A DNA stretch of 59,200 bases from Patescibacteria group bacterium (GCA_034678605.1 JAXDBQ010000020.1:1-59200); one strand, 5' to 3'. Positions 29,123-45,853 are shown, counted from the stretch's first letter. Notes: generated by a model not told the origin, from the sequence alone. A program made the numbers and translations.

Positions 29123-29189
29123 AAAGGTTTAAAATTAAACTTATAACTCCATCATACCAAATATACCAAAATTTTTCCATCTTGCCCCC

Positions 29190-29240
29190 TTATTTAATCG
29201 CCGCCAGCTGTTTTTGCAGTTCAAAAGTGAGCTGGATCAA
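29190..29240 (-). pseudogene. Orphan surface-protein C-terminal tail A (LIQLTFELQKQLAAIK*)
   Basis: Shares GAACTGCAAAAACAGCTGGCGGC (23 nt) with the end of 30705-33125; overlaps the AbiEii stop codon. Confidence 0.85.
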
Positions 29241-30013
29241 AATTGGAATGATTCGATATACGCTCTAAACATCGTGATTTTCTTGGCGTCCGCGCCGTTA
29301 ATAATAAACGGCGCCGCGTCTTTGGCCAATTCGTTAAAATTTAAATTTTTGGTTTTTGAAAGCAAGGTGTCTTTCAATTGTTTGCCGTTTTCAATCCCCA
29401 ATTTGGCGGATAAATATTGGTAGTTTGGCGGCGTGAGCGGTAAAAGGAAAACGATATCAAAAAAATCCCGCCCTTTGGCTCGTTTCCGGTTCAGCGCCGC
29501 GTAAATTTTTTGCGCCAGCGACAAGTCAATCGGCGCGACATTTACTTGGGTAAAAACATCAAATTTGTTAATGATCTTTAAGTCCTTTTTATAATCAAAA
29601 GCGTGCGGAACCGTGTCAACCTGGATCATAATTTTTTCCTCGCGCAAATCCGATAAATTATTATCAAATAAAATTTCGGGCATTTTGATGTAAGAACGAT
29701 ACGCTCCTTTGAAAACATTTTTGATTTCCACTTTGCAACCCTGGGCCTCCAACCCTCGCTTTATGCAATCCGCCAGCAAGGAAAAATCTTTTTCGTTGAT
29801 GCCGAAATCATCAAAATCCAAATCTTCGGAAAACCGGCTGTTGCCGTAAATCAGGCGCAAGGCCGTGCCGCCCAAAAACGCAAGCTTTTTGCCTTGCGGC
29901 GAATCAAAAACGATCTCCAATATTTTACATTGCAGATATTCCCTCAAAATGTTACGCTTGAAAACTCTTTCCGGCGGGGAATAATATTTTTCGATGTTAG
30001 ACAAACCAAGCAT
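29237..30013 (-). CDS. AbiEii-like nucleotidyltransferase toxin (type IV TA)
   Basis: LAFLGGTALRLIYGNSRFSEDLDF, KGRDFFDI. Confidence 0.92.
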   Translation of the reverse strand: MLGLSNIEKYYSPPERVFKRNILREYLQCKILEIVFDSPQGKKLAFLGGTALRLIYGNSRFSEDLDFDDFGINEKDFSLLADCIKRGLEAQGCKVEIKNVFKGAYRSYIKMPEILFDNNLSDLREEKIMIQVDTVPHAFDYKKDLKIINKFDVFTQVNVAPIDLSLAQKIYAALNRKRAKGRDFFDIVFLLPLTPPNYQYLSAKLGIENGKQLKDTLLSKTKNLNFNELAKDAAPFIINGADAKKITMFRAYIESFQF

Positions 30014-30620
30014 TGGTGTATTTCATTAAATTGCCGACCCGCTTGTTCAAAGATTTATTTTTGAAAGCCGCCAAAAATTTTTCCAATTTTTTTGTATCGG
30101 CTTTTTCTTTAAATCCAAGCGCGTTAAACCGCATACCGTCAAAATCAACGGCGTCTTTTATACCGGGATTTAAATAAAGATAATCAAGCGCCGCCTTTTC
30201 CATTTGCGCGATGGCATAATTTTGGCCGCGACACTCGCCCAAACCATAACCGAACATCAATTCCGGCTTGATATGCTTATAGATAAAATTTCCCACCGGC
30301 GTTTGAAAATTAGCGGTTTTGCGCGAAGTAACGCAAGTAATTCCATAAACCGCTTCGGGAATTAGATTATGCCAAGACAACGACATTTCCAGGGAAACAT
30401 ATGATGGCGCATAGATTTTATTGGCAATCAAAAACAAAGTTTTTTCATCAATCTGCAAATCGGAAAAAACATAATACCCTTGCCGTATTTTTTTGATATA
30501 TCCTTTTTTTTGCCATTCGCTCAATCTTTGATTGTGAAAAGACGGATCGATTTTTTCAATACCATTGATTGAAAAAACAATAAAATCCTTTAATTCGGTT
30601 TTAAGGTCAATATATTGCAT
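29997..30620 (-). CDS. AbiEi-like antitoxin / wHTH transcriptional regulator
   Basis: IKKIRQGYY, IYAPSYVSLEMSLSWHNLIPE, EKAALDYLY; overlaps the toxin start. Confidence 0.88.
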   Translation of the reverse strand: MQYIDLKTELKDFIVFSINGIEKIDPSFHNQRLSEWQKKGYIKKIRQGYYVFSDLQIDEKTLFLIANKIYAPSYVSLEMSLSWHNLIPEAVYGITCVTSRKTANFQTPVGNFIYKHIKPELMFGYGLGECRGQNYAIAQMEKAALDYLYLNPGIKDAVDFDGMRFNALGFKEKADTKKLEKFLAAFKNKSLNKRVGNLMKYTNAWFV

Positions 30621-30704
30621 TTTATTCTAATTTATTCCGTTTTTTAGGAATCCTTAAGAATATTATCCCAATTTTGCAACAATTTTGCAAGCCAAATTGT
30701 TATT

Positions 30705-33125
30705 TTAATTGATTTTTTGCATTGCCGCCAGCTGTTTTTGCAGTTCGGTAATTAGCTGGATAATTAATTGGATAAGCAGTTTTTTAATTTCGGCAATCTT
30801 AGCCAAAATCTCGGCCCGGGTGAGTTTATGCGGCTGTGGTTCGATCGTACCGCCACCCCCTCCTCCACCGCCCCCGCCAGAAGACACACAGGCATTGTCG
30901 CGACAGGTCTTGTTTTCCGCGGCGCAATTTTGCGCCAAGCTTTCTTTGGCGTTGCAGGAATTGTACCAATACAAATTGTTGCTGTCGCATTTCTTGGACG
31001 CATGAGATGTACAACTTGATGTACATTGGCCGGCAGAGCAAGTTTTGCCGCCGGCGCAACTGCCGCAATTAATCGTGGCACCGCAACCATCGCTCCAGTC
31101 CCCGCAATGGTAATTGCCCAAGGTAGCGCAGGTTTTGGCCGCGCAAACCGGGTTATTGACGCAACTTCCATTCTGGCAAGTTTGGTTTGCGCCGCATTTG
31201 GAATTGTCATCCTGCCAACCGGTGCCGTCATCAAGGCAAACCTTACACCCGGAAACTTGGTTAGGCGCGCAGATAATTTTTTGCAATTGCGAAGCCAATT
31301 GGATCTCAGCATTAGCTTTTCCGCCGCCGGAACTGATAAATTTAGAAAGACCGACAAGGCAATGTCCTTTCTCCAATACAATATTAGGAAAAGATTTGTT
31401 GATCGGAACTTGGACGGCGGTCTGCCCATGTCCTTGGAATTGCGCGGAATAAATTTTAACGGCATCGGAAGGTATCAACGCGTAATAATTCTTAACAACC
31501 GCATCTTCTCCTTGCCCGCCTTGATAGCCATTTTGGAATGCGGAACAATTTTTGAATATGTATCCATCGGCAAACGCGGTCCAATCGCTTTCAATGTCAG
31601 TATAGGCGGCAATGCTTATATTACCGTTCATCCCAAATAAACGGACACTATTTTGGGTTTGACTTGGGCCAACATACATTACCGACTGATCATTCCTGCT
31701 AGCCAAAGGAAAAATATACTCATAACCAAAACCTTCGATAAACGGCGAATTAGCCGCATCATTAATCAGATTGCTTTCATATATTAGCGAAACCCGGCTT
31801 TCCAAAATGGCTTCTGATGAACCAAATCCGCCATCTAAAAGAAGATAAATACATTGACTCTTGGTGTCGAACGGAATTTTTTTGTCAAAACGAAAATCAA
31901 CCGGCGCGCTGACGGTTCCTGCGACAAATGTTTTTAGAATATAATTCGCTAAATTTTTCATTTGAGGATATGCGGCGGCAAGGGACGGCCAGTCAGGATA
32001 AATTTTATTTTGAGGGCAAGGCCCGGGAATAATACCGATACTATTAAGCGACATATCAAGCTGCGGCTTGTTCTTCGCGGTAAAAAACAGCGACCCGGAA
32101 AAACCCAAAATATTGATATTTTTTTCATTTGCCGGAAAAGGAAAAAAATACATTCTCTTTTCGTAATGAGACTTATCCGCAATCGCAACAGCGCTAATGC
32201 TTAATCTTTTTTCCGTAATATTGGCGGAAACACATTTGCCTTTTTCGCAAACTTGGCCGGAGGTGCAATTGATAACAGCCGACAATTCAAAACATCCATC
32301 CCCATCGTTGTCACTACAATTTTGATAACTCTTATCATCAAAACATTGGGAGACTTGGGAAGCGCATTCGCTTTGGCAACCGGGGTAGCGATATTCCATT
32401 TTTTTTGACCCAATCAGTATTTTTCCTCCAAAAGGAAAATTGCCGGCATAAGCGTAAACAGTATGGGCAGCGCCATCGTTAAATTGATCGGGTAACTCCC
32501 AATTAAACCCATGCCAAGCATGCCCGCCACAAACATTTCCCACGCCGGGATCTGTTCGTAGGCTATTCGCAACCACGCTCCCCATTGATCTTTGGTTCTC
32601 AATCGGACCGTCGTAAAAATATATAGTCAAAGGTTTTGAATAATCGTCGGCATCGCAGGCCCAGCCAAAGGCAAAATAATTATTAATGCTATCGAAATAA
32701 CCAATTGGAGATTGGCTGCCGGCACATTGCATTGTTTTTTGGCCATTACTTAACAACGGATTCGATCCTGCGGGCGTATTGATCGCGTAAGCGTAGATAT
32801 TGTGGCTTTGGCCGTCTTTTAAAAAATCCGGGGTAGGCATGGCAAACCCGTGCGCCGGTTTGCCGCCGCACAAATCACCTACCGCAGTTTCGCGGGCGAT
32901 GTTGGCAACCGCTGAACCGGCCCATCTGCCAACACCAGCCTCGCCGTCGTAATAAAAATGCACTTCCAGCGATTTTGAATAATCGTCGGCGTCGCATGTC
33001 CAGCCGTAGATAGAATCGCAGCCGGCATAATCAAGATAACCGACCGGCACTTCATTGGCAGAAGAAACTCCCGGCAACGCCAACACGCAAGCAAATAATG
33101 ATAACAAAATAATTGACTTTTTCAT
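30705..33125 (-). CDS. Secreted modular Cys-rich surface protein 1 (806 aa)
   Basis: Signal peptide, two GYxDx...GWxCDADD Ig-like repeats, AT-rich central domain, Cys-rich repeats, poly-Gly, C-terminal TRAEILAKIAEIKKLLIQLIIQLITELQKQLAAM helix. Confidence 0.9.
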   Translation of the reverse strand: MKKSIILLSLFACVLALPGVSSANEVPVGYLDYAGCDSIYGWTCDADDYSKSLEVHFYYDGEAGVGRWAGSAVANIARETAVGDLCGGKPAHGFAMPTPDFLKDGQSHNIYAYAINTPAGSNPLLSNGQKTMQCAGSQSPIGYFDSINNYFAFGWACDADDYSKPLTIYFYDGPIENQRSMGSVVANSLRTDPGVGNVCGGHAWHGFNWELPDQFNDGAAHTVYAYAGNFPFGGKILIGSKKMEYRYPGCQSECASQVSQCFDDKSYQNCSDNDGDGCFELSAVINCTSGQVCEKGKCVSANITEKRLSISAVAIADKSHYEKRMYFFPFPANEKNINILGFSGSLFFTAKNKPQLDMSLNSIGIIPGPCPQNKIYPDWPSLAAAYPQMKNLANYILKTFVAGTVSAPVDFRFDKKIPFDTKSQCIYLLLDGGFGSSEAILESRVSLIYESNLINDAANSPFIEGFGYEYIFPLASRNDQSVMYVGPSQTQNSVRLFGMNGNISIAAYTDIESDWTAFADGYIFKNCSAFQNGYQGGQGEDAVVKNYYALIPSDAVKIYSAQFQGHGQTAVQVPINKSFPNIVLEKGHCLVGLSKFISSGGGKANAEIQLASQLQKIICAPNQVSGCKVCLDDGTGWQDDNSKCGANQTCQNGSCVNNPVCAAKTCATLGNYHCGDWSDGCGATINCGSCAGGKTCSAGQCTSSCTSHASKKCDSNNLYWYNSCNAKESLAQNCAAENKTCRDNACVSSGGGGGGGGGGTIEPQPHKLTRAEILAKIAEIKKLLIQLIIQLITELQKQLAAMQKIN

Positions 33126-33196
33126 TTTTGAAAATTATTGATTATTGTATTTTAGCACAAAATCCGGCATACGCACGCCGGATTTTGCACCTTTGA

Positions 33197-36100
33197 TTAT
33201 TTCGGCATTGCCGCAAGCTGCTTTTGCAGCTCGGCGATGAGCTGAATGATGAGCTGGACCAATAATTGCTTGATCTGGGCGATCTTAGCCAAAATTTCAC
33301 CGCGGTTGATCTTTCCTTGACTCGCCGAAGCTTCACGCGAAGGCGGCTGCGGCTCGATCATTCCGCCACCGCCGCCTCCTCCACCACCTCCGCCGGATTG
33401 CGCAATACACTGGCCATTGGAACAGGTTTTGCCCGCGGCGCAGCTGCCGCAGTTGATGGTTTTGCCGCAGCCGTCATTGGCATCGCCGCACTGAAAGCCG
33501 ATATTGGCGCAGGTGTTGGGCTGGCAGGTTGCGGCGCAAACGCCGTTGGCGCAGATCTTGTTGCTGTTAGCACAGTTGGTCGTGTTGTCCCATTGCGAGG
33601 TTTCAAAGCAGGCATTGTTGGCGCAGCCCTTCTTTAAAGTTTTTCGCTGGATCCAGGTTGACGAGCATTGGTAATTATCGGTGGTTTGGTCAATACCGCA
33701 GTTTTGCGCCAGTTCTTCTTTGGTGTTGCAAGAATTGTACCAGTAGAGATTGCCATTGTCGCATTTCTTTGACGCGTGGCTTGAGCAATTGGAAACGCAT
33801 TTGCCCGTCGAGCAAGTTTGGTTTGGAGGGCACGCGCCACAATTAATTGTTTTGCCGCAACCGTCAGGCCAATCCCCGCACTGGTAGTTGCCCAACCCGG
33901 CGCAGGTTTTGGCAACGCAGTTTGTTTGGCATTGGCCGGAAACGCAAGTTTGGCCGGTAGAGCAAGATCCGCAGCTCAATGTTTTGCCGCAACCGTCGGA
34001 AACGCTGCCGCATTTATAGCCCTGGGAATCACAGGTTTTGGCAACGCAAGTTGCCACGCAATTACCGCTGTTGCAAGCCGTGCCGGCAGCGCACGCGGTT
34101 GTTGCGCCCCATTTTAAACAGCCGCCGGACAACGCGCAGGTTTGGTAACCGTTGCCGCTACACTGCTTGGCGCCGACCAAACTGCAGGTGGACGCGCAAG
34201 TTGCCACGCATTGGCCGGCCGAGCAAGTTTGATTGCTGCCGCACGTGCCGCAATTAATGGTCTTGCCGCAACCGTCGCTCCAATCGCCGCACTGGTAATT
34301 GCCCAAGGTAGTACAGGTTTTGGCAACGCAAGCCGGGTTATTGACGCAAGTCCCATTCTGGCAAGTTTGATTTGCGCCGCATTTGGAATTGTCATCTTGC
34401 CAGGCGCTGCCGTCTGCCTTGCAAAATTTGCAACCGGAAACAACACCGGGAACACAAACAGTTCTCAATATTGATAACGAGCCGGTAACTTTGCCGCCTC
34501 CGGAAACTTCGGTTCTTTCCATTGAGGTGGTAAAAGAATTGGCGAAATTGATTTGGGCGCCGCTGCCGATGGAACTGTACATATACTTGCCCGGGGCCGG
34601 TTCCAGAACGCAATTTGTGCAATTAACTTTTGAATTTTGGGCAACCAGAGAATTATTGGCGGATTTGAGGCGGGTGCCATTAATGGTGACATTGGAATTC
34701 ACGGCATTAACCGCGATATAATCAGAAATGCTGCCGCCGTTAAATGTAACCCGGGGCGTACTGTTTTTAATATATACGCCGCCCGGAAAAATTGAGTTGG
34801 AAGATGAGTTGCCGGTGATTGAATTTATGTTTATTGTGATCGGTTTTGGGTTTTGCACCAATAACGGCAATTTAACTTCATTGGCGATAGCAAAAAGTAT
34901 GCAATGCGAAGACGCGCCATTCTGATTATTTCTGTCGGCGGCATTTATCGTCAAATCGTTGATGGTTATCCCGCCGCCACCCCGATGAGTGCCCCAGCTG
35001 GACGTAAGATGGCCGTTTTTAATGGTCAAACCATCAATAATAATGTCCAAATCATGGTCGCCGACATTTATAATGGTCATCCCCGTCCCGCAAAAATCTT
35101 CATTCAAAGAATCGTATTCTGATTTTAAATCGCTTGCCCGTATTTTTTGCACATTGTCAAAAGTTATCGCTTCCCAAAAATTATTGCGGTTTTGAAGATT
35201 ATGCATATAACCATACGCCTCCCAATTGCCGGCGTAATCGCCGTGAGCGCCGCCGGCACCATTGCCCCAATAAATTCCTTGGTCCGCTGAGTTTATCAAT
35301 TCCAAATTGAAAAATTTTCCCCCGCTTCTCCTGCCGCCGGTAAGCACCAATCCCGCGCCGTCAACAAATAAATCGGTTTGGTTATTTCTATTGCCGTCAA
35401 AAGTCATGTTGGCCAAGGTTAACGCTGAATAGCTTGCCCCGTAATATTCATAGCCGGTGGCATAAAAAATCAATGCCGGATGCCCGTAATAGTGTTGATT
35501 ATTGCCAAGCTTTAAAATAGTTTTCCCCATGCCGGCGCCATAAATATGCATATTTTTCCCTTCAAGCGAGAACACCGTATAAAAATTAGCAATTTTTTGA
35601 CCCGCGACTAACCCGTCATAAATTCCGGGGCCAATATAAAGCGAGCCGTCGTCAGGCGTGGCCGCGATCGCGGCGCGGATAACCTGGGTGTAATTGGACC
35701 CGGAAGAGATAACTCCGCCGTTTTTGTTTTTTGCCGTGGCGATGTTGCCGCTTTTTGAAACGGTGACATCAAAGGTAGCGGGAATCGGCGGCGTGCCCGT
35801 GATACAACCGCCATCAACGCAAACTTGGCCTTTGCCGCATTGGGTTGAGTCATCGGCCCACTTCATGGTCAACGGCCGGCAGATTTTGCAGCCTTGCGTC
35901 TGGCCGGCGATGTCGCAATCGTATTTGTCTTTTTTCCCGGTGAAAGGATTTGGATTGGCTTTCCCGTTATATACCGCCTTTATATCGTTTTCCGTTAACG
36001 CGCGGGAATAGACGCGGACATCGTCAATTAAGCCATTGGCCAGCCAATCGTGATTCATTCCAATTTCGCTGCAAATGCCGATACTTAGCGGTAAATTTTC

Positions 36101-37276
36101 GTGATTTCTTGGGTTTCCCTCATAAGTCGTTTTCCCTTGCAAAACGCCGTCAACATAAAACGCGGCGGTTTTCGCGTTTGTATCAACCGTAGCCGCCAAA
36201 TGATGCCATTGGCCGACGTCATAGGTGGCTAAAGAAGAAACTCCGAAAAATCGGTCATCGGCAGTGTATGATCCAAAATGAAACCGGCGATCGCTGGCAA
36301 AATTAATATTAGTATGAAAACCCGGCTTGCAAATTATTGCCTGTCGGCTGTGGTATTCGTTTTGATCATATACCGGGATACTGGCCGGGTTATACCATGC
36401 CGACCAAGTATAGCTATGTTCAGTAATATCTTTCAATGTCGGTGAAACCACCGCTTCCAGAGAATTATTGCCGGTAAATTTTAACGCCTTGCCGAATTTT
36501 CCCGCCGCAAGTGTCGGGCAAGGATCCGACAAATTGCAAATCTGATGGTTCCCAAATCCGGACCAATCCTTGAACAAGAGCGATGATTCGCCGTTTTCGC
36601 CGTCAAACTTCCACCAGCCGACCAAGCCATCGTTATAATTCCCCGAAGATAAAACGCAAGATCCATCCAAGCAAATTTTTCCGCCGGCGCATTTTGAATC
36701 ATCATCTTGCCACACAGAACCGTCGGAGTTGCAAACCTTGCAACCCAAAACCGCGCCCGGAACACAAGTTGCGTAATTGGCGCATTTTTCAATTTTCACC
36801 GAATTGCTCGATCCCTTCACGACGCGGTATAAACTTCCGCCGATAGCGGCTTGATTGGGCATATTCCCCGAGAAATAAGTGGAGCCGGTATTTTGCCACT
36901 CGGTCCAATTTTTAGAAGATTGGTATATTCTTTTCCAAAGCATATCATCGCCGCCAATGCCCGAGGCCGTTATCTTGCCATCCGCGCCTAATACCAGATT
37001 TGGGCCGGTGATCAAAACACCGCCCAACGAATACCATTCGTTTTTGCCGGTTTGAGGGTTGTATTCGTTGATCCATAATGCGTCATCCGTACCCACGGCC
37101 GCGATGACTAATTTCGTATCACTATCCGCATAGATCGCCGGCTTATATTTGATGATGCCCCCGATATCGGCAAAGCTTGACCAATTTTGGCAATCGGCGG
37201 CTAACGCCTGGATTGCAATACATTGAAAAAACAATGTGGAAACAAACAATGAAAATAGAATGATTCGTTTTTTCAT
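33197..37276 (-). CDS. Secreted modular Cys-rich surface protein 2 (1359 aa): propeller-like repeat, LamG, beta-helix
   Basis: Signal peptide; AAVGTDDALW/WYSLGG repeat; GLVGWWKFD...VGQWHHLAAT...GLIDDVRVYSRAL (LamG/ConA); pectin-lyase-like beta-helix; many CVAKTC...CG modules; same C-terminal helix. Confidence 0.92.
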   Translation of the reverse strand: MKKRIILFSLFVSTLFFQCIAIQALAADCQNWSSFADIGGIIKYKPAIYADSDTKLVIAAVGTDDALWINEYNPQTGKNEWYSLGGVLITGPNLVLGADGKITASGIGGDDMLWKRIYQSSKNWTEWQNTGSTYFSGNMPNQAAIGGSLYRVVKGSSNSVKIEKCANYATCVPGAVLGCKVCNSDGSVWQDDDSKCAGGKICLDGSCVLSSGNYNDGLVGWWKFDGENGESSLLFKDWSGFGNHQICNLSDPCPTLAAGKFGKALKFTGNNSLEAVVSPTLKDITEHSYTWSAWYNPASIPVYDQNEYHSRQAIICKPGFHTNINFASDRRFHFGSYTADDRFFGVSSLATYDVGQWHHLAATVDTNAKTAAFYVDGVLQGKTTYEGNPRNHENLPLSIGICSEIGMNHDWLANGLIDDVRVYSRALTENDIKAVYNGKANPNPFTGKKDKYDCDIAGQTQGCKICRPLTMKWADDSTQCGKGQVCVDGGCITGTPPIPATFDVTVSKSGNIATAKNKNGGVISSGSNYTQVIRAAIAATPDDGSLYIGPGIYDGLVAGQKIANFYTVFSLEGKNMHIYGAGMGKTILKLGNNQHYYGHPALIFYATGYEYYGASYSALTLANMTFDGNRNNQTDLFVDGAGLVLTGGRRSGGKFFNLELINSADQGIYWGNGAGGAHGDYAGNWEAYGYMHNLQNRNNFWEAITFDNVQKIRASDLKSEYDSLNEDFCGTGMTIINVGDHDLDIIIDGLTIKNGHLTSSWGTHRGGGGITINDLTINAADRNNQNGASSHCILFAIANEVKLPLLVQNPKPITININSITGNSSSNSIFPGGVYIKNSTPRVTFNGGSISDYIAVNAVNSNVTINGTRLKSANNSLVAQNSKVNCTNCVLEPAPGKYMYSSIGSGAQINFANSFTTSMERTEVSGGGKVTGSLSILRTVCVPGVVSGCKFCKADGSAWQDDNSKCGANQTCQNGTCVNNPACVAKTCTTLGNYQCGDWSDGCGKTINCGTCGSNQTCSAGQCVATCASTCSLVGAKQCSGNGYQTCALSGGCLKWGATTACAAGTACNSGNCVATCVAKTCDSQGYKCGSVSDGCGKTLSCGSCSTGQTCVSGQCQTNCVAKTCAGLGNYQCGDWPDGCGKTINCGACPPNQTCSTGKCVSNCSSHASKKCDNGNLYWYNSCNTKEELAQNCGIDQTTDNYQCSSTWIQRKTLKKGCANNACFETSQWDNTTNCANSNKICANGVCAATCQPNTCANIGFQCGDANDGCGKTINCGSCAAGKTCSNGQCIAQSGGGGGGGGGGGMIEPQPPSREASASQGKINRGEILAKIAQIKQLLVQLIIQLIAELQKQLAAMPK

Positions 37277-37347: not shown

Positions 37348-37395
37348 TTATTTTGGCAGAGCTACAAGCTGCTTTTGCAGCTCGGCGATAAGCTG
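37348..37395 (-). pseudogene. Orphan surface-protein C-terminal tail B (QLIAELQKQLVALPK*)
   Basis: Shares ATCGCCGAGCTGCAAAAGCAGCTTG (25 nt) with the end of 33197-37276; 23 nt after the TA toxin stop. Confidence 0.88.
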
Positions 37396-37418
37396 GGCGG
37401 TCAAAAAATCGGCAACCG

Positions 37419-38078
37419 TCATATAAAAATCCGGTTTTTCAATTTTCGCGCCTCATCAACAAAATAGTTCTGCCAATCGCGCCGATTAATCTTTATTTTC
37501 ATCCTCGGAAAATCTTTAACTTCTTTTGCCTGCGTAAATTGGCTGCCGAGCTGCAAAAGGTCAATATGGGTATCAAATTTGATCCTTGCTTTTTTGATCA
37601 AATCATCAATTTTAAACCCAAATTTTTGACGCAAGCAAAAAATATCGATAAAATCGCGGCTTCGGGGTTTTTGATAAATGGTAAAAACTTTATTGACGGC
37701 AATGTCCAGCGCGCTGTCAATCCGCAAATCGCCAATCTCTAAATATTCGCCAACCGCCGAAAACGGGAAATAAGTGAATTCGGTTTTCACGATATCGGCG
37801 CCAAAATCAACAAAAAACAAATTACGGTTAAAACTTTGTTGAAAATCAATTTTTGCAAAACCAAGATTATTTTTGTTTTTTGCCAAAAAAGCGCTGATCA
37901 CCTGCGGATCAACCTCGTTTTCCGAGAAAAAATCAAGATCCTCGGATATCCGATGATGCAAATAAAATTCGGCCAAAGCCGTGCCGCCGCCAAGATAAAA
38001 CGCGCGGCAAATTTCTTTGTCGCCGCAAATCGCGTTCAATAAATTTGTTTGGTTTTGCGTCAATATCGTTTTGGCCAT
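37419..38078 (-). CDS. AbiEii-like nucleotidyltransferase (DUF1814-type) toxin
   Basis: FYLGGGTALAEFYLHHRISEDLDFF, DIAVNK, RSRDFIDI. Confidence 0.9.
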   Translation of the reverse strand: MAKTILTQNQTNLLNAICGDKEICRAFYLGGGTALAEFYLHHRISEDLDFFSENEVDPQVISAFLAKNKNNLGFAKIDFQQSFNRNLFFVDFGADIVKTEFTYFPFSAVGEYLEIGDLRIDSALDIAVNKVFTIYQKPRSRDFIDIFCLRQKFGFKIDDLIKKARIKFDTHIDLLQLGSQFTQAKEVKDFPRMKIKINRRDWQNYFVDEARKLKNRIFI

Positions 38079-38263
38079 AACAACTTTGCGAGAAACTTTT
38101 TCTTTTTCGGATCAAGGTAAAGCTTGCGCCAGTATTTCTTTAAATCACGGGAATTTATTTTTTTTCCGTCCAAACCGAAATTAACCATCTGCTCCAAACG
38201 CCAAATGGCATATTTTTCTTTGTCTTTTTTTAATTCTGCCGTATCAACCGACCAATTTTTCAT
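38060..38263 (-). CDS. Small partner/antitoxin of the adjacent nucleotidyltransferase (DUF6922-like)
   Basis: 67 aa, NWSVD...WRLEQMVNFG...LDPKKKKFL; overlaps the toxin start; TGgTACAAT promoter-like sequence upstream. Confidence 0.75.
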   Translation of the reverse strand: MKNWSVDTAELKKDKEKYAIWRLEQMVNFGLDGKKINSRDLKKYWRKLYLDPKKKKFLAKLLWPKRY

Positions 38264-38322: not shown

Positions 38323-40533
38323 TTACTTGTTCTGGATGCCTGCCAGCTGCTTTTGCAGCTCGGTAATGAGCTGGATGATCAATTGGATCAATAATTGCTT
38401 GATTTCGGCGATCTTTTGCAGGATCTCCTCGCGGGTCATAGGTTGTTGGGGTTCGGTGGTGCCGCCACCGCCGCCGCCGGAGCCGCCGCCGGAACCGGAT
38501 GAAACACATTGGCCGCTGGAATTGCATTTTTTGCCGGATTCGCACGCGCCGCAATTGATCGTGGCGCCGCAGCCATCGTTCCAATCACCGCATTGATAAT
38601 TGCCCAGCGTAGCGCAGGTTTTGGGAGTACAAATATCAGCAATGCATTTTTTAATTTCGGCACTACCGTCATTTTTTTTAATCGCTTTATAGGTTATCCC
38701 GTTAATTACGCCAGCATCAGAACCGCCAACGCTTATGTTTGCCGATGGCAAACCGATGGCTTTCCATTTAGTCCAATTTTTAGATGACATAAAAATGAGG
38801 GTCCACCCACCGCCATCATCTCCCGAGGCCGAAAGGCTTATTTTTTTATCAATTGTTTTGGCCAAACTCGGCCGTGATAACAACACTCCGCCCAGCGAAT
38901 ACCATTCGCCTTTTTTATTTCCCGGATCGTATTCATTAATCCATAAAGCATTATCGGTGCCCACGGCCGCGATAATCAATTTACCATTTGATTCCATTAA
39001 CGAAGGTTCGAATTTTGAAAATCCGCCGATATTATCCCAAAGTTCTGAATTGAGGCATAGATCAACACACCGGCCGGATGAGCAAGTTTTTCCGCTCGCG
39101 CACACGCCGCAGTTGATCGTCGAGCCGCAACCATTATCGGTATTCCCGCACTCATAATTCAAAAATGAGCATGTTTTGGCGTTGCAACCAGCTACGCAAC
39201 TGTTTTCGCAAAATGGAGCAATCGCCGCCTCAACTTTTTCAAACGGCAAATCAAGCCAACCGTCGGCTTGCTTCATTATATGATTATCAATATCAAAATA
39301 TATCAACGCATCACCTTTGCCTTTGTAAAAAGACGCGGCCGCCGGTTCATTCGTCCAAATATATACTTTTGCCGATGGAAATTTGCCGACAACTTGGGTG
39401 GCAAAATCTTCATATGAAAAATTAATCGTATCGCCATTTTTGTCTTTATATTGCTCCCATCCGATAAAATCCGGATCTGCGCCTTCGTTGCGAAACTCAA
39501 CATAATATTTCACCAACGATTCAACAATTCCAACCGCAACCGAAGGATTTGCCTGTTTTATATATTCTTTTAATTGGTTAAATTCCGCTCCGGATAATCC
39601 GGTACTTTCTGGTTGGCCCGCGGCAAAACGAGCCTTGAATTCATCTAACGCGATAACATCGACTCCGCGCCGCAACAACTCTTTACACTCTTCAACCCAA
39701 CCGCAATGCCCCATCACTTTAAATCCCTTTTTATGCGCGCTATTTATATTTGCGGTTGTCTGTCCCCCTGGCATGCTGCCTGAAATTCCAGTAAAATTAT
39801 CAGACATTTTATTAATATAATCCAAAAATTCTTGCTCAACTGCCCTATAGTCCAAATTATACGGAAAAAATCCCGCAAATATTTCAAGTTTCCTGCTACT
39901 ATCTTTACATACGCCATTATCGCAAACCTGGGTTTTGGCGCATTTTAAACTATAATCGCGCCATGCATCGCCGGTTATATCGCAAATTTTACAACCCAAA
40001 AATGACCCCGGAACGCAAAGTTGCGGCACGCATTTTTGAATTAATAATGAATTGCCGGAACTTTTTACGATTCTATATAATAATCCATTTGAGGTTGCTT
40101 CTTTGGGCCCGATGCCGGCAAAACCGCTTGTCCCCGCGACCTGCCATTCGGTCCAGCTTTTTGCTGCTGAATAATTTCTTTGCCAAATTGTAAAATTATC
40201 GCCGCCGATGCCCGAAAATCTGATTTTGCCGTCCGCGCCTTTGACCAAATTCGGGCCGGATGTTAGAACGCCGCCAAGAGAATACCATTCATTTTGATTG
40301 GTTTGCGGATTAAATTCGTTGATCCACAAGGAATCATCCGTGCCCACGGCCGCAATAATCAGTTTGTCATCCGCGCTTGCCGCAATTGCCGGATCATATT
40401 TAATTACGCCGCCGATATTGGCAACCGCCGTCCAATTTTGGCAATCCGCGGCAAAGACATTGTCCGCGCCAACCACAAAAAACATACCGCAAATTAGTAT
40501 CGCCAGAAATAACGGAACATTGATTTCCCTCAT
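38323..40533 (-). CDS. Secreted modular Cys-rich surface protein 3 (about 736 aa)
   Basis: Start at MREINV; two copies of the AAVGTD..LW/WYSLGG module; AT-rich central domain resembling a glycoside-hydrolase barrel (VDVIALDE, PDFIGWEQY); poly-Gly; same C-terminal helix. Confidence 0.88.
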   Translation of the reverse strand: MREINVPLFLAILICGMFFVVGADNVFAADCQNWTAVANIGGVIKYDPAIAASADDKLIIAAVGTDDSLWINEFNPQTNQNEWYSLGGVLTSGPNLVKGADGKIRFSGIGGDNFTIWQRNYSAAKSWTEWQVAGTSGFAGIGPKEATSNGLLYRIVKSSGNSLLIQKCVPQLCVPGSFLGCKICDITGDAWRDYSLKCAKTQVCDNGVCKDSSRKLEIFAGFFPYNLDYRAVEQEFLDYINKMSDNFTGISGSMPGGQTTANINSAHKKGFKVMGHCGWVEECKELLRRGVDVIALDEFKARFAAGQPESTGLSGAEFNQLKEYIKQANPSVAVGIVESLVKYYVEFRNEGADPDFIGWEQYKDKNGDTINFSYEDFATQVVGKFPSAKVYIWTNEPAAASFYKGKGDALIYFDIDNHIMKQADGWLDLPFEKVEAAIAPFCENSCVAGCNAKTCSFLNYECGNTDNGCGSTINCGVCASGKTCSSGRCVDLCLNSELWDNIGGFSKFEPSLMESNGKLIIAAVGTDNALWINEYDPGNKKGEWYSLGGVLLSRPSLAKTIDKKISLSASGDDGGGWTLIFMSSKNWTKWKAIGLPSANISVGGSDAGVINGITYKAIKKNDGSAEIKKCIADICTPKTCATLGNYQCGDWNDGCGATINCGACESGKKCNSSGQCVSSGSGGGSGGGGGGTTEPQQPMTREEILQKIAEIKQLLIQLIIQLITELQKQLAGIQNK

Positions 40534-40550
40534 AAATTTTCCGATACGAA

Positions 40551-41012
40551 TTATTCGCAAGCAATGCCCACCGGCCAGATTTCGTGCACCATTTAGCCTT
40601 CCAATTCAAAATCGGCCAGCTTGCCGTAAATCACGACTTTTTTACCGGCGTAATATGACAAATCGTCTTTGGGGGCGTAAATATTGCGGCCGTTTAAGCT
40701 GTAAAGCGACGATCTCATCAGAGTGTCCGCGACGCCCGCATTCACGGCGTTTTTATTTAATATTCCCAAAAATTGAGTTTCGGCGGTATTTAAGGAGTTG
40801 TAGCTGTCGATAAAGCCTTTGTCGTTATTCAAGGTTTTTTTGTTCTTGTCGGCGCAAGCGGTTTGACTGCAATCTTTCGGACAACTAATACTATTTTCAC
40901 CGGAATTTTTATTGCAAACGCCATCGCCGCATTTTGCGCATCCAGAACATTATCACCGTCAAAAAACAACAACACCGCAAGAAAAATTACCAAAAATATC
41001 TTTCTGATTTTT
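40551..41012 (-). pseudogene. Degraded secreted Cys-rich protein gene
   Basis: Leader like that of the 1359-aa gene but no ATG; signal peptide KIRKIFLVIFLAVLLFF out of frame with CGDGVCNKNSGENSISCPKDC; in-frame TAA at 40593-40595 followed by MVHEIWPVGIACE*. Confidence 0.65.
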
Positions 41013-41035
41013 AAAAAACTATTGATTGTTTTATT

Positions 41036-41083
41036 TTAATTGGTTTTGGGCATTGCCGCCAGCTGCTTTTGCAGTTCGGCGAT
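41036..41083 (-). pseudogene. Orphan surface-protein C-terminal tail C (IAELQKQLAAMPKTN*)
   Basis: Matches the ends of proteins 1 and 2; starts 9 nt after the pfkB stop. Confidence 0.88.
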
Positions 41084-41092
41084 TCAACGATT

Positions 41093-42088
41093 CTACAATT
41101 CAACGTTTCTAATTTTAATTTTGATGTTTTCTTGGCCCACAAGATAGTTGTCTTCTTTGGCCAAAAGTTTGTCGGAACCGCGGATCGATAGGCAATGCTT
41201 GGCGTTCACCAGCGCCAATTTCATCGAATATTCGATATCGTTGTTCGAAGAAAGCATCCCGCTCATAAAGCCCGAAGCGAACGCGTCGCCCGCGCCGGTA
41301 ACGTCGATTATTTTAAAGGCCTTGGCCTTGCCTTCATAAACCTTGCCCTCGGCAATGATCAGCGCGCCCTCTTTTCCCTTGGTGATCACATTGATGCCCG
41401 GGTGCATATACACGATCTTTTTAATGATCGCTTTTTCATCTTTGTAATCAATGCCAGTTAATGTCGCGGCTTCTTCCAAATTCAAGATCAACACGTCGAT
41501 GCGCGCCAGCAAGCCCTTGATACACGCCCGGCCCATGGCTAATTGGGAATTGCCCAAATTGGCCGCCACCATCACATTGTTCTTACGGGCGAATGCCGTG
41601 ATTTGCTCGGTCAAACGGCACAACCGGCCCGAAAGCGGCGCCAGATAGAACAATTTGGCATTCATTTTGTCCCATTGCACGCACTCATGGCCAAAAAGCT
41701 CGGATGCGCCCCGATAAACCAAGATCACCCGGTCTTCGCCGGCGGCATTGAGCACCACGGAATTATTCGTCGCCCGCTCTTTGGTTTTGCAGATCAATTC
41801 CGTGCCAACGCCCAGCCGCTTCAAATGCTCGGCCACTTCGCGGCCGGGAATATCGTCGCCCACCATGCCGCAATAGGCAGTTTTAAAACCTTGCCGCGCG
41901 AAAGTTGTGGCCGTGTTGACCCCCCCGCCGCCAAACGCAAACCGCATCTGCGGCACATCGATCTTGGAGCCCATGTTGAATTCAAACCCCCGCCCCGAGA
42001 TCATCTTGGCGTCTTTTTTCACAAATTTTGGCGGCATGTCCATAAACGCGTCCCACGCCGCGCTCCCGAAAGTGATTACATCGTACAT
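41093..42088 (-). CDS. PfkB/ribokinase-family carbohydrate kinase
   Basis: FGGGGVNTA, GMVGDDIPG, ITKGKEGA, DVTGAGDAFASG. Confidence 0.92.
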   Translation of the reverse strand: MYDVITFGSAAWDAFMDMPPKFVKKDAKMISGRGFEFNMGSKIDVPQMRFAFGGGGVNTATTFARQGFKTAYCGMVGDDIPGREVAEHLKRLGVGTELICKTKERATNNSVVLNAAGEDRVILVYRGASELFGHECVQWDKMNAKLFYLAPLSGRLCRLTEQITAFARKNNVMVAANLGNSQLAMGRACIKGLLARIDVLILNLEEAATLTGIDYKDEKAIIKKIVYMHPGINVITKGKEGALIIAEGKVYEGKAKAFKIIDVTGAGDAFASGFMSGMLSSNNDIEYSMKLALVNAKHCLSIRGSDKLLAKEDNYLVGQENIKIKIRNVEL

Positions 42089-42364: not shown

Positions 42365-42454
42365 CGCTTTTTTTTATTCATTCCTCATAATACTTCGGGG
42401 CTATACCTGATGTAGTTTATTATAAAATTGTTTTCAATCTTTTTTTAGTAATTT

Positions 42455-42583
42455 TTATTTCCGCAGACCGCCGAGCTTGATGATGGTTTTCATAACGCTG
42501 TCGGGGTTAAGCGACATGGTTTCGATGCCTTCGCGCATGATGAATTCGGCAAATTCGGGATAATCGCTGGGCGCTTGGCCGCA
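42455..42583 (-). pseudogene. Orphan duplicate of the last 42 codons plus stop of ppsA
   Basis: 120/129 nt identical to 43460-43588; 8 of 9 differences are synonymous. Confidence 0.95.
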
Positions 42584-43441: not shown

Positions 43442-43459
43442 ATCAATAAAATTCTTTTT

Positions 43460-45853
43460 TTATTTCTGCAAGCCGCCCAACTTGATGATGGTTTTCATGA
43501 CGCTGTCGGGGTTCAATGACATGGTTTCGATGCCTTCGCGCATGATGAATTCGGCAAATTCGGGATAATCGCTGGGCGCTTGGCCGCAGATGCCGATGTA
43601 CTTGCCCCGGACCTTGCAGGCCGCGATCGCCTGTTTGACCAAAATTTTCACCGCCTCGTTGTTCTCACTGGCAATATGAGTCAATTGGCCGGCATCGCGA
43701 TCCAAACCAAGCGTTAATTGCGTGAGGTCGTTGGAACCGATCGACATGCCGTCAAAAATATCCAAGAATTGATCGGCCAAGATCACATTTGAGGGAATTT
43801 CGCACATCACCATAATCTTTAACCCATTCTGACCCGATTCGAGGCCGTTTTTTTTCATCACTTCAATCACTTTTTTGCCTTCCTCCACGGTGCGGCAAAA
43901 CGGAATCATCACCCACACATTATCCAGCCCCATCTGTTCTCTCACTTTTTTGATCGCCGCGCATTCCAGCGCGAATGCCGGCGCAAAGCGCGGGTCATAA
44001 TAGCGCGACGCGCCGCGCCAACCGATCATGGGATTTGATTCTTCGGGCTCGTATTCGCTCCCTCCCAGCAACGCGCGGTATTCATTGGTTTTGAAATCCG
44101 AAAACCGCACGATGATGTGCTTGGGATAAAACGCCGCCGCGATCGTGGCAATGCCCTCGGCAAGCTTGTCCACGAAAAATTCTTTTTTATCTTTGTATCC
44201 GAAAGTGATCTGCTCAATTTGCGCTTTCAGTTTTTTGTCTTTCAACTTGCCAAAATTTATCAGCGCCAGCGGATGCACCTTAACTTGATCGGCAAAAATA
44301 AATTCCACCCGCGCCAAACCCACGCCATCATTGGGCAAAAACGAGGCCTTAAACGCCGCTTCGGGCGTGCCCACGTTGAGCATAATCTTTGTCGGCAACT
44401 CCGGAATCATACCTAAATCATATTCCTTTTTTTCATAAGGAATCTTGCCCGCGTAAACCCGGCCTTCCAGCCCTTGGGTGCAATCCGCCGTGGCCATCAC
44501 GCCGTTTTTTAAAACTTTACTGCCATCACGCGTGCCCACAATGCAGGGCGTGCCCAATTCGCGCGACACGATCGCCGCATGGCAGGTTTTGGTGCCCTCA
44601 TCGGTCACGATCGCCGACGCGATGCGCATAATCGGCACCCAATCCGGGTCAGTCATGGTGGTTACTAAAATTTCACCGGCCTTGAACTGATTGATCTGTT
44701 TGACATTGGGAATAATGTGAATTTTCCCCTGGCCAATCTTGTGGCCCACGGCAATGCCGGCAACCAACGGCTTGGCGCTGGTTTTGACTTCGTATTCTTC
44801 GTAAGTATTTTGAGCAACCTTACCGGCATAGATGGTTTCCGGCCGCGCCTGCACAATAAACAATTCGCCGGTTTTGCCATCTTTGGCCCATTCGATATCC
44901 TGCGGCCCATGGTAGTGCTCCTCGATGATCACCCCCCACTTAGCCAATTGTTCGGCTTCTTTATCGGTCAACGAAAACCGTGCCCGGTCTTTGGGCAAAA
45001 CCTTCACTTCCTTCAAACCGACCTTCTTGTCAAAAATGTATTTGATATCCTTGTTGCCCAATGTTTTGGAAATGATCGCAGTTTTACCTGATTTTAAGGA
45101 AGGTTTAAAAACATAGAACTGGTCGGCCACCACATGGCCTTTCACGATCATTTCACCCGCGCCAAAAATCGAATTGATCAAAACCGCGTTGCGAAATCCG
45201 GTTTCCGTGTCCAAAGTGAACATGATGCCCGCCGAGGCCAGATCCGAGCGCACCATTTTCATCACTCCCACCGACAGCGCCACTTTGAGCGTGTCAAAGC
45301 CCTTTTCGACCCGATAAACGATGGCTCGCTCCAAAAACAGCGACGAAATGCATTTTTTCACCGCGTCCAGCAATTCCAAAGGCGTATCGATATTCAAATA
45401 GGTTTCATGCGCCCCGGCAAACGACGCGCCGGCCAAATCCTCGGCCGTGGCCGACGACCGAACCGCCACATTCACATTCTTGGTTTTGTAATAGGCCGAC
45501 AATTCCTTGTAGGCCGCCAAAATTTCTTTTTTGAAATCCGGCGGAAACTCGCCCTTCAAAACCAAATTGCGCGCCAAAGTGCTGGCTTTTTTGAGTTTAG
45601 CTAAATTGGAAGCATCCAAATCTTTGAAGATCGGTTCCAATTTTTTATCAATGCCGTTGTGCCGCAAATAGCGCCAATAGGCCGTGCTGGTGGTAATAAA
45701 CCCGTTGGGGATCGGCACGCCCTTTTCGCCCAATTGCGAAAACATCTCGCCCAGCGATCCGTTTTTTCCCCCGACCAGCTCCACGTCCTTTTTGGTCACT
45801 TCCTTGAACCACGCCACATTCCTCTCGTTTATGTTTTGATTTTCTGTTTCCAT
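43460..45853 (-). CDS. ppsA: Phosphoenolpyruvate synthase (pyruvate, water dikinase)
   Basis: VGGKNGSLGEM, VAVRSSATAEDLAGASFAG, QARPET, TCHAAIVSRELG (phospho-His), GVGLARVEF, SIGSNDLTQL, GICGQAPSD. Start taken at METENQ. Confidence 0.96.
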   Translation of the reverse strand: METENQNINERNVAWFKEVTKKDVELVGGKNGSLGEMFSQLGEKGVPIPNGFITTSTAYWRYLRHNGIDKKLEPIFKDLDASNLAKLKKASTLARNLVLKGEFPPDFKKEILAAYKELSAYYKTKNVNVAVRSSATAEDLAGASFAGAHETYLNIDTPLELLDAVKKCISSLFLERAIVYRVEKGFDTLKVALSVGVMKMVRSDLASAGIMFTLDTETGFRNAVLINSIFGAGEMIVKGHVVADQFYVFKPSLKSGKTAIISKTLGNKDIKYIFDKKVGLKEVKVLPKDRARFSLTDKEAEQLAKWGVIIEEHYHGPQDIEWAKDGKTGELFIVQARPETIYAGKVAQNTYEEYEVKTSAKPLVAGIAVGHKIGQGKIHIIPNVKQINQFKAGEILVTTMTDPDWVPIMRIASAIVTDEGTKTCHAAIVSRELGTPCIVGTRDGSKVLKNGVMATADCTQGLEGRVYAGKIPYEKKEYDLGMIPELPTKIMLNVGTPEAAFKASFLPNDGVGLARVEFIFADQVKVHPLALINFGKLKDKKLKAQIEQITFGYKDKKEFFVDKLAEGIATIAAAFYPKHIIVRFSDFKTNEYRALLGGSEYEPEESNPMIGWRGASRYYDPRFAPAFALECAAIKKVREQMGLDNVWVMIPFCRTVEEGKKVIEVMKKNGLESGQNGLKIMVMCEIPSNVILADQFLDIFDGMSIGSNDLTQLTLGLDRDAGQLTHIASENNEAVKILVKQAIAACKVRGKYIGICGQAPSDYPEFAEFIMREGIETMSLNPDSVMKTIIKLGGLQK

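Follow-up and report, generated by a model that had tools for sequence, protein, structure and literature searches.

The AbiE toxin-antitoxin (TA) pair in a 59,200-nucleotide (nt) stretch of DNA from a Patescibacteria group bacterium (GCA_034678605.1 JAXDBQ010000020.1:1-59200), hereafter the window, is probably the last cassette of an array of genes that end in a common tail. As judged from the alignments described below, both ends of this cassette lie in a 23-nt core of the tail, with a short "orphan" tail as the 3' boundary, and we propose that the unit has been moved by recombination at conserved junctions. The organism belongs to the candidate phyla radiation (CPR). CPR bacteria live attached to the cells of their hosts, and surface proteins presumably determine both their contact with hosts and their exposure to phages. 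To our knowledge, the mechanism of surface-protein variation in these minimal genomes is poorly known.

On the minus strand, the locus reads surface protein 1, a promoter match, abiEi, abiEii, a 51-nt tail stub, an fbp promoter match, and fbp. Surface protein 1 (surf1; 33125 to 30705) is a secreted, Cys-rich protein of 806 amino acids (aa) with a poly-Gly linker and a C-terminal helical tail ending in ...LIQLIIQLITELQKQLAAMQKIN (also written ...KIAEIKKLLIQLIIQLITELQKQLAAMQKIN). It has no family match in Pfam or NCBIfam, and a search for orthologues returned modular partial matches only. The upstream copy of the core (30724 to 30746) lies in this tail and forms the left boundary of the cassette. 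The 84-nt spacer between surface protein 1 and abiEi contains a promoter match, TTGCAA-17-(TG)GATAAT (30690 to 30662). Two genes follow, abiEi (30620 to 29997), predicted to encode an antitoxin and autorepressor, and abiEii (30013 to 29237), predicted to encode a nucleotidyltransferase (NTase) toxin. Next comes orphan tail 1, an untranslated stub (29240 to 29190) whose nucleotides TTGATCCAGCTCACTTTTGAACTGCAAAAACAGCTGGCGGCGATTAAATAA correspond to LIQLTFELQKQLAAIK* and whose core (29200 to 29222) forms the right boundary. The stub's first codon shares nucleotides with the abiEii TGA. To the right, the island is flanked by fbp (29122 to 28022; FBPase class V, Pfam PF01950, 2.2e-146), with its own promoter match at 29179 to 29151. 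A first-pass annotation had described this order and the overlap with the TGA, and we found every element in place. The core, GAACTGCAAAAACAGCTGGCGGC, is exact at both positions, and shuffles gave 0 chance matches.

Ten metagenome contigs, drawn from three or more sequencing projects, are 99.9 to 100% identical here. Because these independent contigs agree, and because 3 of the 10 span both tails, we ruled out an assembly artefact as the source of the tail/TA/tail order. Translation of orphan 1 by frameshift or readthrough was likewise rejected; inspection revealed no canonical slippery site, and readthrough of the TGA leads into a different frame.

The closest relatives of the window AbiEii (88% aa identity) are encoded on contigs L127 and L148, the latter a 15-kb contig of the related assembly GCA_964551425.1. 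The order on L148 is RNase HII, a stub (LIVVLQKQLAAMGKTN), the same abiE promoter, abiEi, abiEii, a second stub (LIQLIIQLIAELQKQLAALPKTN), and a surf1-like gene. Relative to the abiEii stop codon, the downstream stub starts at the very nucleotide where it starts in the window, and L127 has the same junction between the abiEii stop and TCCAGCT. When globally aligned, L148 and the window were 87% identical over 1516 nt. Identity climbed inside the upstream tail core and dropped right past the downstream core, and outside the cores nothing was alignable. Because this homology runs from core to core at different loci, the alignment shows the abiE unit of about 1.52 kb (30746 to 29200) as a discrete cassette. 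By the same comparison, the chromosomal site of the cassette differs between the two related genomes, and in both it lies between tail cores. The window genome's own RNase HII has no stub or array behind it. The first-pass annotation had proposed that the TA pair entered, or is retained, through the tail sequence. The presence of the same unit with the same stub fusion at another locus supports a tie between TA pair and tail, but orphan stubs as such are not specific to TA entry.

The L148 comparison also bears on a simpler account, in which what was once the last surface gene was interrupted or replaced by the TA pair and the orphan stayed behind as its undeleted 3' remnant, a passive scar with no role in mobility or stability. 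Several features would suit such a scar. The three orphans of the window start 6, 18, and ~34 nt from the core, and orphan 1 is untranslated and 12 nt short relative to the L148/L127 stub, equal to that stub minus one 12-nt repeat unit. The sequences flanking the orphan 1 core match no known tail, and an exact search of metagenome contigs for a parent gene, using the core plus GATTAAATAA, gave no match. On its left, the TA unit begins ~12 to 16 nt past the stop of protein 1, at the position expected for the start of another array gene. However, the junction between the TA pair and the stub is kept in a second lineage that has other neighbours on both sides, and the homology ends in the cores. 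Since the junction is conserved there, the stub travels with the TA pair and marks the edge of the unit. A scar origin suits the first event and not the later history, and we consider the passive scar unlikely.

The exact identity between the orphan core and the protein 1 tail, noted in the first-pass annotation, was real but less specific than it seemed. Exact copies of the 23-mer are found in genomes G005 (4 copies), G012, G009, and G001 of the same genus as well as in several metagenome contigs, and species that have it in common possess FBPases only ~80% identical. The 23-mer is thus a genus-wide consensus, and its presence in both copies does not point to protein 1 in particular. Orphan 1 and the protein 1 tail share no more than this consensus core, and we found no support for reading the orphan as a copy of that tail.

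A repeat at both ends of a defence unit also calls to mind insertion with long target duplication (Nobusato 2000; Furuta et al. 2010). Here, the incoming DNA would have been anchored in the protein 1 tail, and the orphan would be the recipient's original 3' end, duplicated. The window holds a clear, textbook example, in which direct repeats of the ppsA 3' end (42452 to 42583 and 43457 to 43588; 132 nt, 93% identical) bracket an NYN-domain gene (43218 to 42661). The AbiE locus has the same geometry and microhomology at the join between abiEii and tail, and TA units are AT-rich compared to fbp (GC, 0.35 to 0.41 versus 0.49 to 0.54). As in the insertions that Furuta, Abe and Kobayashi defined (2010; PMC2853133), a unit of accessory or defence genes, with none for mobility, is flanked by direct repeats that take in the upstream gene's 3' end. 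Their repeats exceed 30 bp, whereas ours is exact over 23 nt and ~80 to 86% identical over ~51 nt with a gap. Moreover, our repeat is a multicopy family sequence, of which the orphan and the protein 1 tail have only the consensus core in common, and we found no empty site with a single repeat copy. In L148, the stub that moves with the unit is already attached to the TA pair at another locus, so the duplication was not created by insertion between PfkB and fbp. We consider this explanation highly improbable.

In contrast to the single orphan of the first-pass annotation, three are present. The one after AbiE is real, and others follow PfkB and a second TA pair. A genome-wide scan detected eight copies of the tail core at five or fewer mismatches, plus one weak nontail match, and six of the eight fall in one 12-kb block of the window. 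Three of these six end the long, secreted, Cys-rich proteins surf3, surf2, and surf1, and the other three are the orphans, giving an array of five units and six tails. Its left flank is a PfkB-family kinase gene (41093 to 42088; Pfam PF00294 on an identical protein). Orphan tail 2, the array-start stub (41036 to 41083; IAELQKQLAAMPKTN*; core, 41055 to 41077), lies 9 nt past the PfkB stop. Next come surface protein 3 (surf3; 38323 to 40560; 745 aa from a TTG start, or 720 aa in an alternative call; core, 38339 to 38361) and a second TA-like pair (37419 to 38263). In this pair, a 67-aa open reading frame (ORF; 38263 to 38060) overlaps the gene for an AbiEii-like NTase of 219 aa (38078 to 37419) that has conserved NTase motifs and a PADLOC AbiEii match (7.3e-11); the 67-aa partner has no family match in NCBIfam or PADLOC. 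Orphan tail 3 (37348 to 37416; VADFLTAQLIAELQKQLVALPK*; core, 37361 to 37383) follows and leads into a standard junction of tail, intergenic region, and ATG. Surface protein 2 (surf2; 33197 to 37276; 1359 aa, with a LamG domain and a tail; core, 33210 to 33232) precedes surface protein 1. All these genes and stubs are on the minus strand. Right after the array-start stub, at 40600 to 41030, we observed a decayed gene for a small secreted protein, with ATC at the position of the array-gene ATG and a signal-peptide-like stretch followed by a frameshift into the CGDGVCNKNSGENSISCPKDC... frame.

In four genomes of the same genus (G002, G003, G006, and G008), PfkB and fbp are neighbours ~85 to 155 nt apart. 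In four others (G001, G004, G005, and G011), the spot is filled by unrelated, divergently oriented genes for secreted proteins. By this comparison, the whole 11.9-kb array is an insertion at a hotspot between PfkB and fbp. The first-pass annotation had expected relatives with an empty site in which the surface gene directly precedes fbp. The empty site does exist, with PfkB directly before fbp in the four relatives, but what is missing there is all 11.9 kb and not the 1.5-kb unit alone. The metagenome search gave no contig with protein 1 directly before fbp, and all contigs with identical fbp, PfkB, or AbiEii show the same arrangement, with no TA-less variant among them. An orphan tail at this spot in relatives that lack the TA pair would have spoken against the annotation. 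We looked for one and found none; the gap between PfkB and fbp in G002, G003, G006, and G008 contains no tail-like sequence.

Gain and loss of cassettes at tails can be followed at other loci. Array members each end in the same tail of ~100 nt, followed by a short conserved intergenic region and the start of the next gene. At one locus, upstream of a conserved gene whose product starts with MNKELVDY, the same promoter-like sequence (TGgTTATAAT) and stub are followed by a variable number of tail-bearing genes: four in G009, two in L142, at least two in G001 (partly different ones), and none in L119. The solo tail of L119 begins, on the 5' side, with the array-start sequence and finishes, on the 3' side, like the tail end of the last gene, as expected of a product of recombination from tail to tail. 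Array-start stubs were found at five loci and mark the start of every array that we examined, including those without a TA pair. Just upstream of the MNKELVDY promoter and stub, L119 (Ga0302244_1007765), L123, and L102 (G001:C42 8440-9385) carry a conserved pair of genes for proteins of 181 aa and 132 to 134 aa, possibly another TA or defence pair. In L120 (Ga0172382_10136996, 45 to 800), the tail of an array gene is interrupted; the ORF ends in ...IKQLLV, and the rest (LIAQLIAELQKQLAAMK*) is in another frame.

A breakpoint at the strain level was seen in contig L145, which is 99.7 to 99.9% identical to the window from 40981 to 37268, a segment that includes surf3, the second TA pair, orphan 3, and the intergenic region. 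L145 then turns into a different, surf1-like gene 9 nt into the ORF after orphan 3. Since this breakpoint lies in the intergenic region and start and not in the core, it favours homologous recombination over the whole junction rather than a fixed crossover. RecA is encoded in the genome. There is no integrase in or near the array, and the single genome match to a tyrosine recombinase (PF00589) is on another contig, C7, outside the window.

We compared synonymous sites in 29 distinct tails chosen by peptide only. Core codons varied less synonymously than the helix codons just upstream (Leu entropy, 1.1 to 1.3 versus 2.1 to 2.4 bits), and Gln13 was CAA in all 29. This conservation could stem from gene conversion, from arrays being exchanged horizontally, from a role in translating the gene that follows (whose ATG is 6 nt past the core in compact arrays), or from a DNA site. 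That last possibility underlies a site-specific cassette system, in which the core, a 6-4-6 dyad in some copies, would be an attC- or dif-like site at which a recombinase, either dedicated or housekeeping, cuts. Besides the low synonymous diversity, such a system would account for unit boundaries within the 23-nt core, for stubs at five loci that start no more than ~21 nt from it, for the layout of promoter and stub followed by N cassettes, and for the hairpins of three copies (z, -2.3 to -2.5). Yet the genus consensus core has no dyad, and neither the protein 1 tail (z, +0.3) nor orphan 1 (z, -0.6) folds better than shuffles. The 5' edges of the stubs are not fixed, no Rfam family was above threshold, and both the breakpoint of L145 and the missing integrase speak against it. 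We regard a dedicated site-specific system of this kind as quite improbable. The broader idea that the coding sequence contains a genuine recombination site, the tail core, and that the genus uses it for an integron-like platform capturing and shuffling surface and TA cassettes, is to us clearly unlikely. If true, the synonymous constraint on ELQKQL would reflect a DNA site and not the protein, and the recombinase would be either a housekeeping enzyme or one yet to be found.

Two further candidates for a function of the core were rejected. A Chi-like site in the core, GCTGGCGG, is not enriched (182 observed versus 179 expected; rank 25,597 of 63,778 octamers). A conserved RNA or DNA hairpin is not a general feature, being significant only in copies with GAGCTGCAAAAGCAGCT. 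A subthreshold isrK match at 33157 to 33233, covering the surf2 tail core and a hairpin past the stop, scored 28.9 against a cut-off of 50 bits and is probably due to chance.

We return to the array of tail-bounded cassettes that recombine at their junctions. How abiEii first acquired a tail can be read in part from the join itself. Same-genus AbiEii orthologues (n = 7; 53 to 71% identical), together with thousands of CPR homologues, are 258 to 261 aa long and end at the same residue. The stub junction therefore sits exactly at the native abiEii stop, which excluded a truncated or tail-fused abiEii. The end of abiEii plus stub reads CAATT-TTGATCCAGCT, while a normal tail such as that of surf3 reads CAATTATTGATCCAA, and the microhomology at the junction is CAATT-TTGATCCA versus tail CAATTATTGATCCA. 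As the last codons of abiEii are native, the stub looks like a microhomology-mediated join between TA pair and tail. We propose that this illegitimate event probably took place once, before the lineages split, and that TA pair and stub have been passed on together since. Separate joins that hit the same nucleotides would be a possible, though less parsimonious, explanation. RecA-type homologous recombination between conserved junctions would then move cassettes. Comparison among relatives shows the outcomes, with cassettes gained, lost, replaced, and put in a new order, which leaves N+1 tails for N cassettes, a stub at the array start, and a solo tail upon collapse. Loss of the abiE unit from tail to tail, if it occurred, would read ...ITELQKQLAAIK* directly before fbp.

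The AbiE pair has its own promoter match and intact catalytic motifs, and it most likely persists by addiction, phage defence, or both. A by-product may follow from its position. Six tails allow 15 possible tail-to-tail deletions, 11 of which remove a TA pair while 4 spare both, and a TA pair would penalize deletions that span it, among them a complete collapse like that of L119. AbiE is known to stabilize plasmids (PMC3985639) and an integrative and conjugative element (PMC11062541), and promoter-bearing TA cassettes kill cells that over-excise a chromosomal integron (PMC13108822). By analogy, it is plausible that the TA pairs guard this array against large deletions.

Several observations weigh against our proposal. 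TA pairs within arrays were found in this lineage only, and the arrays of G005, G009, G012, G007, and L124 have none. A variant lacking only the 1.5-kb unit was not seen among contigs with identical fbp or PfkB. Array-start stubs begin ~6 to 21 nt from the core at five loci, a clustering that random illegitimate joins do not predict and that therefore leaves room for a site-directed process. Finally, the contigs of GCA_964551425.1 differ in their relation to the window genome: L145 is 99.8% identical, and the housekeeping part of L148 is 91 to 94% identical. The bin may be mixed, which limits statements on a single "strain" but leaves the cassette comparison unaffected. The identity gap between L145 and L148 could reflect either a mixed bin or a recent exchange of an array segment between two species.

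One close functional parallel is the TA cassettes of sedentary chromosomal integrons (Richard et al. 2024, PMC13108822). Both have a promoter-proximal site followed by N cassettes with N+1 sites, cassette content that varies among close relatives, and TA cassettes with their own promoters amid the cargo, which in integrons penalize excision. Unlike an integron, our array has no IntI, its repeated sites are the cargo genes' translated 3' ends and not noncoding attC hairpins, its recombination is probably driven by homology, and its cargo is one modular family of surface proteins. With neither IntI nor attC, the locus is not an integron, and the platform architecture is a functional resemblance only. 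In the Rhs, contact-dependent inhibition (CDI), and type VI secretion system (T6SS) displacement arrays of Kirchberger et al. (2017, PMC5361080), conserved segments likewise anchor recombination and strings of orphaned gene ends remain. Homology-facilitated illegitimate recombination was proposed to produce those orphan arrays, alongside ordinary homologous recombination, and we propose both here. The anchor in our case is the extreme 3' end with a variable gene body, the orphans are 48- to 70-nt stubs and not toxin-immunity modules, and the embedded pairs are AbiE TA and not effector-immunity pairs. The dif modules of Acinetobacter plasmids (PMC6449649) are also discrete accessory units, often TA pairs, with short conserved bounds, varied contexts, and no recombinase of their own. 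However, pdif sites are inverted XerC/XerD sites on plasmids, whereas our repeats are direct, coding, and chromosomal and have no dif-like sequence. Taken together, these comparisons describe an integrase-free array of cassettes in which the cargo genes' own coding tail forms the junction and in which a TA pair has been turned into a cassette.

In this view, genes that have a conserved 3' tail and junction in common can be exchanged like cassettes; in close relatives, arrays are found empty, short, or long. The tail of a surface gene would then also serve as a junction for swapping genes in and out, and the TA pair would have become a cassette by gaining a tail stub, which fits its presence at different chromosomal sites. 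The array may thus offer an integrase-free analogue of integron TA cassettes that is open to testing. For annotation, a warning follows: short "orphan" gene ends beside defence genes can be working junctions and should not be dismissed as noise.

As for the AbiE pair itself, by sequence it is an ordinary member of AbiE, a type IV TA and abortive infection system. AbiEi, of the COG5340 type with a winged helix-turn-helix and a C-terminal domain, has 207 aa and matches PADLOC AbiEi PDLC02241 over its full length (6.6e-65), with residues 1 to 201 covering profile positions 1 to 197 of 199. Its NCBIfam TAA_AbiEi match (9e-10) is under the family cut-off, and Pfam gave no match. AbiEii is full length at 258 aa and matches PADLOC PDLC02313 over residues 1 to 255 (3.2e-88) and Pfam PF08843 (3.4e-19). 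The two genes overlap by 17 nt, antitoxin gene first, in a bicistronic arrangement. NTase motifs I (hGG/S), II (DhD), III (K...R), and IV (+DxxD) were defined by Dy et al. (2014, PMC3985639), and in our alignment of relatives the residues G48 and G49, D64-L-D66, K169, R178, and R182-D183-F-x-D186 are invariant. Between the -10 element and the ATG lies an imperfect 16-nt inverted repeat (30623 to 30662, minus strand; 75% complementary, 8-nt spacer), a candidate AbiEi operator. AbiEi of S. agalactiae binds inverted repeats in its own promoter (PMC3985639); the layout here resembles that operator, and the window AbiEi may bind in a similar way. The pair resembles the AbiE systems of Dy et al. (PMC3985639) in its bicistronic, overlapping genes, COG5340-type antitoxin, DUF1814 NTase motifs I to IV, and promoter with (candidate) inverted repeats. 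Unlike theirs, it is known from sequence alone, has a CPR host, and is embedded in a surface-gene array.

Same-genus AbiE orthologues occupy at least four different contexts, and by its changing neighbours the pair is mobile within the genus. The unit contains abiEi and abiEii only and no mobility genes. The commonest context, between the genes for a 237-aa membrane protein (p237) and murB, was found in G004, G007, G009, and G012, and the window genome's own p237-murB site is empty, with no abiE remnant. AbiEii relatives farther off than L127 and L148 (species genomes at 66 to 68% identity and three at 50 to 52%) have no stub. In L128 (Logan SRR31675917 contig, 78%) and L062 (G010:C96, 71%), the same AbiE lineage lies beside genes for Cys-rich secreted proteins and has no tail stub. 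The abiE promoter match of the window is kept in L148 and L128, and abiEi of G010 appears truncated.

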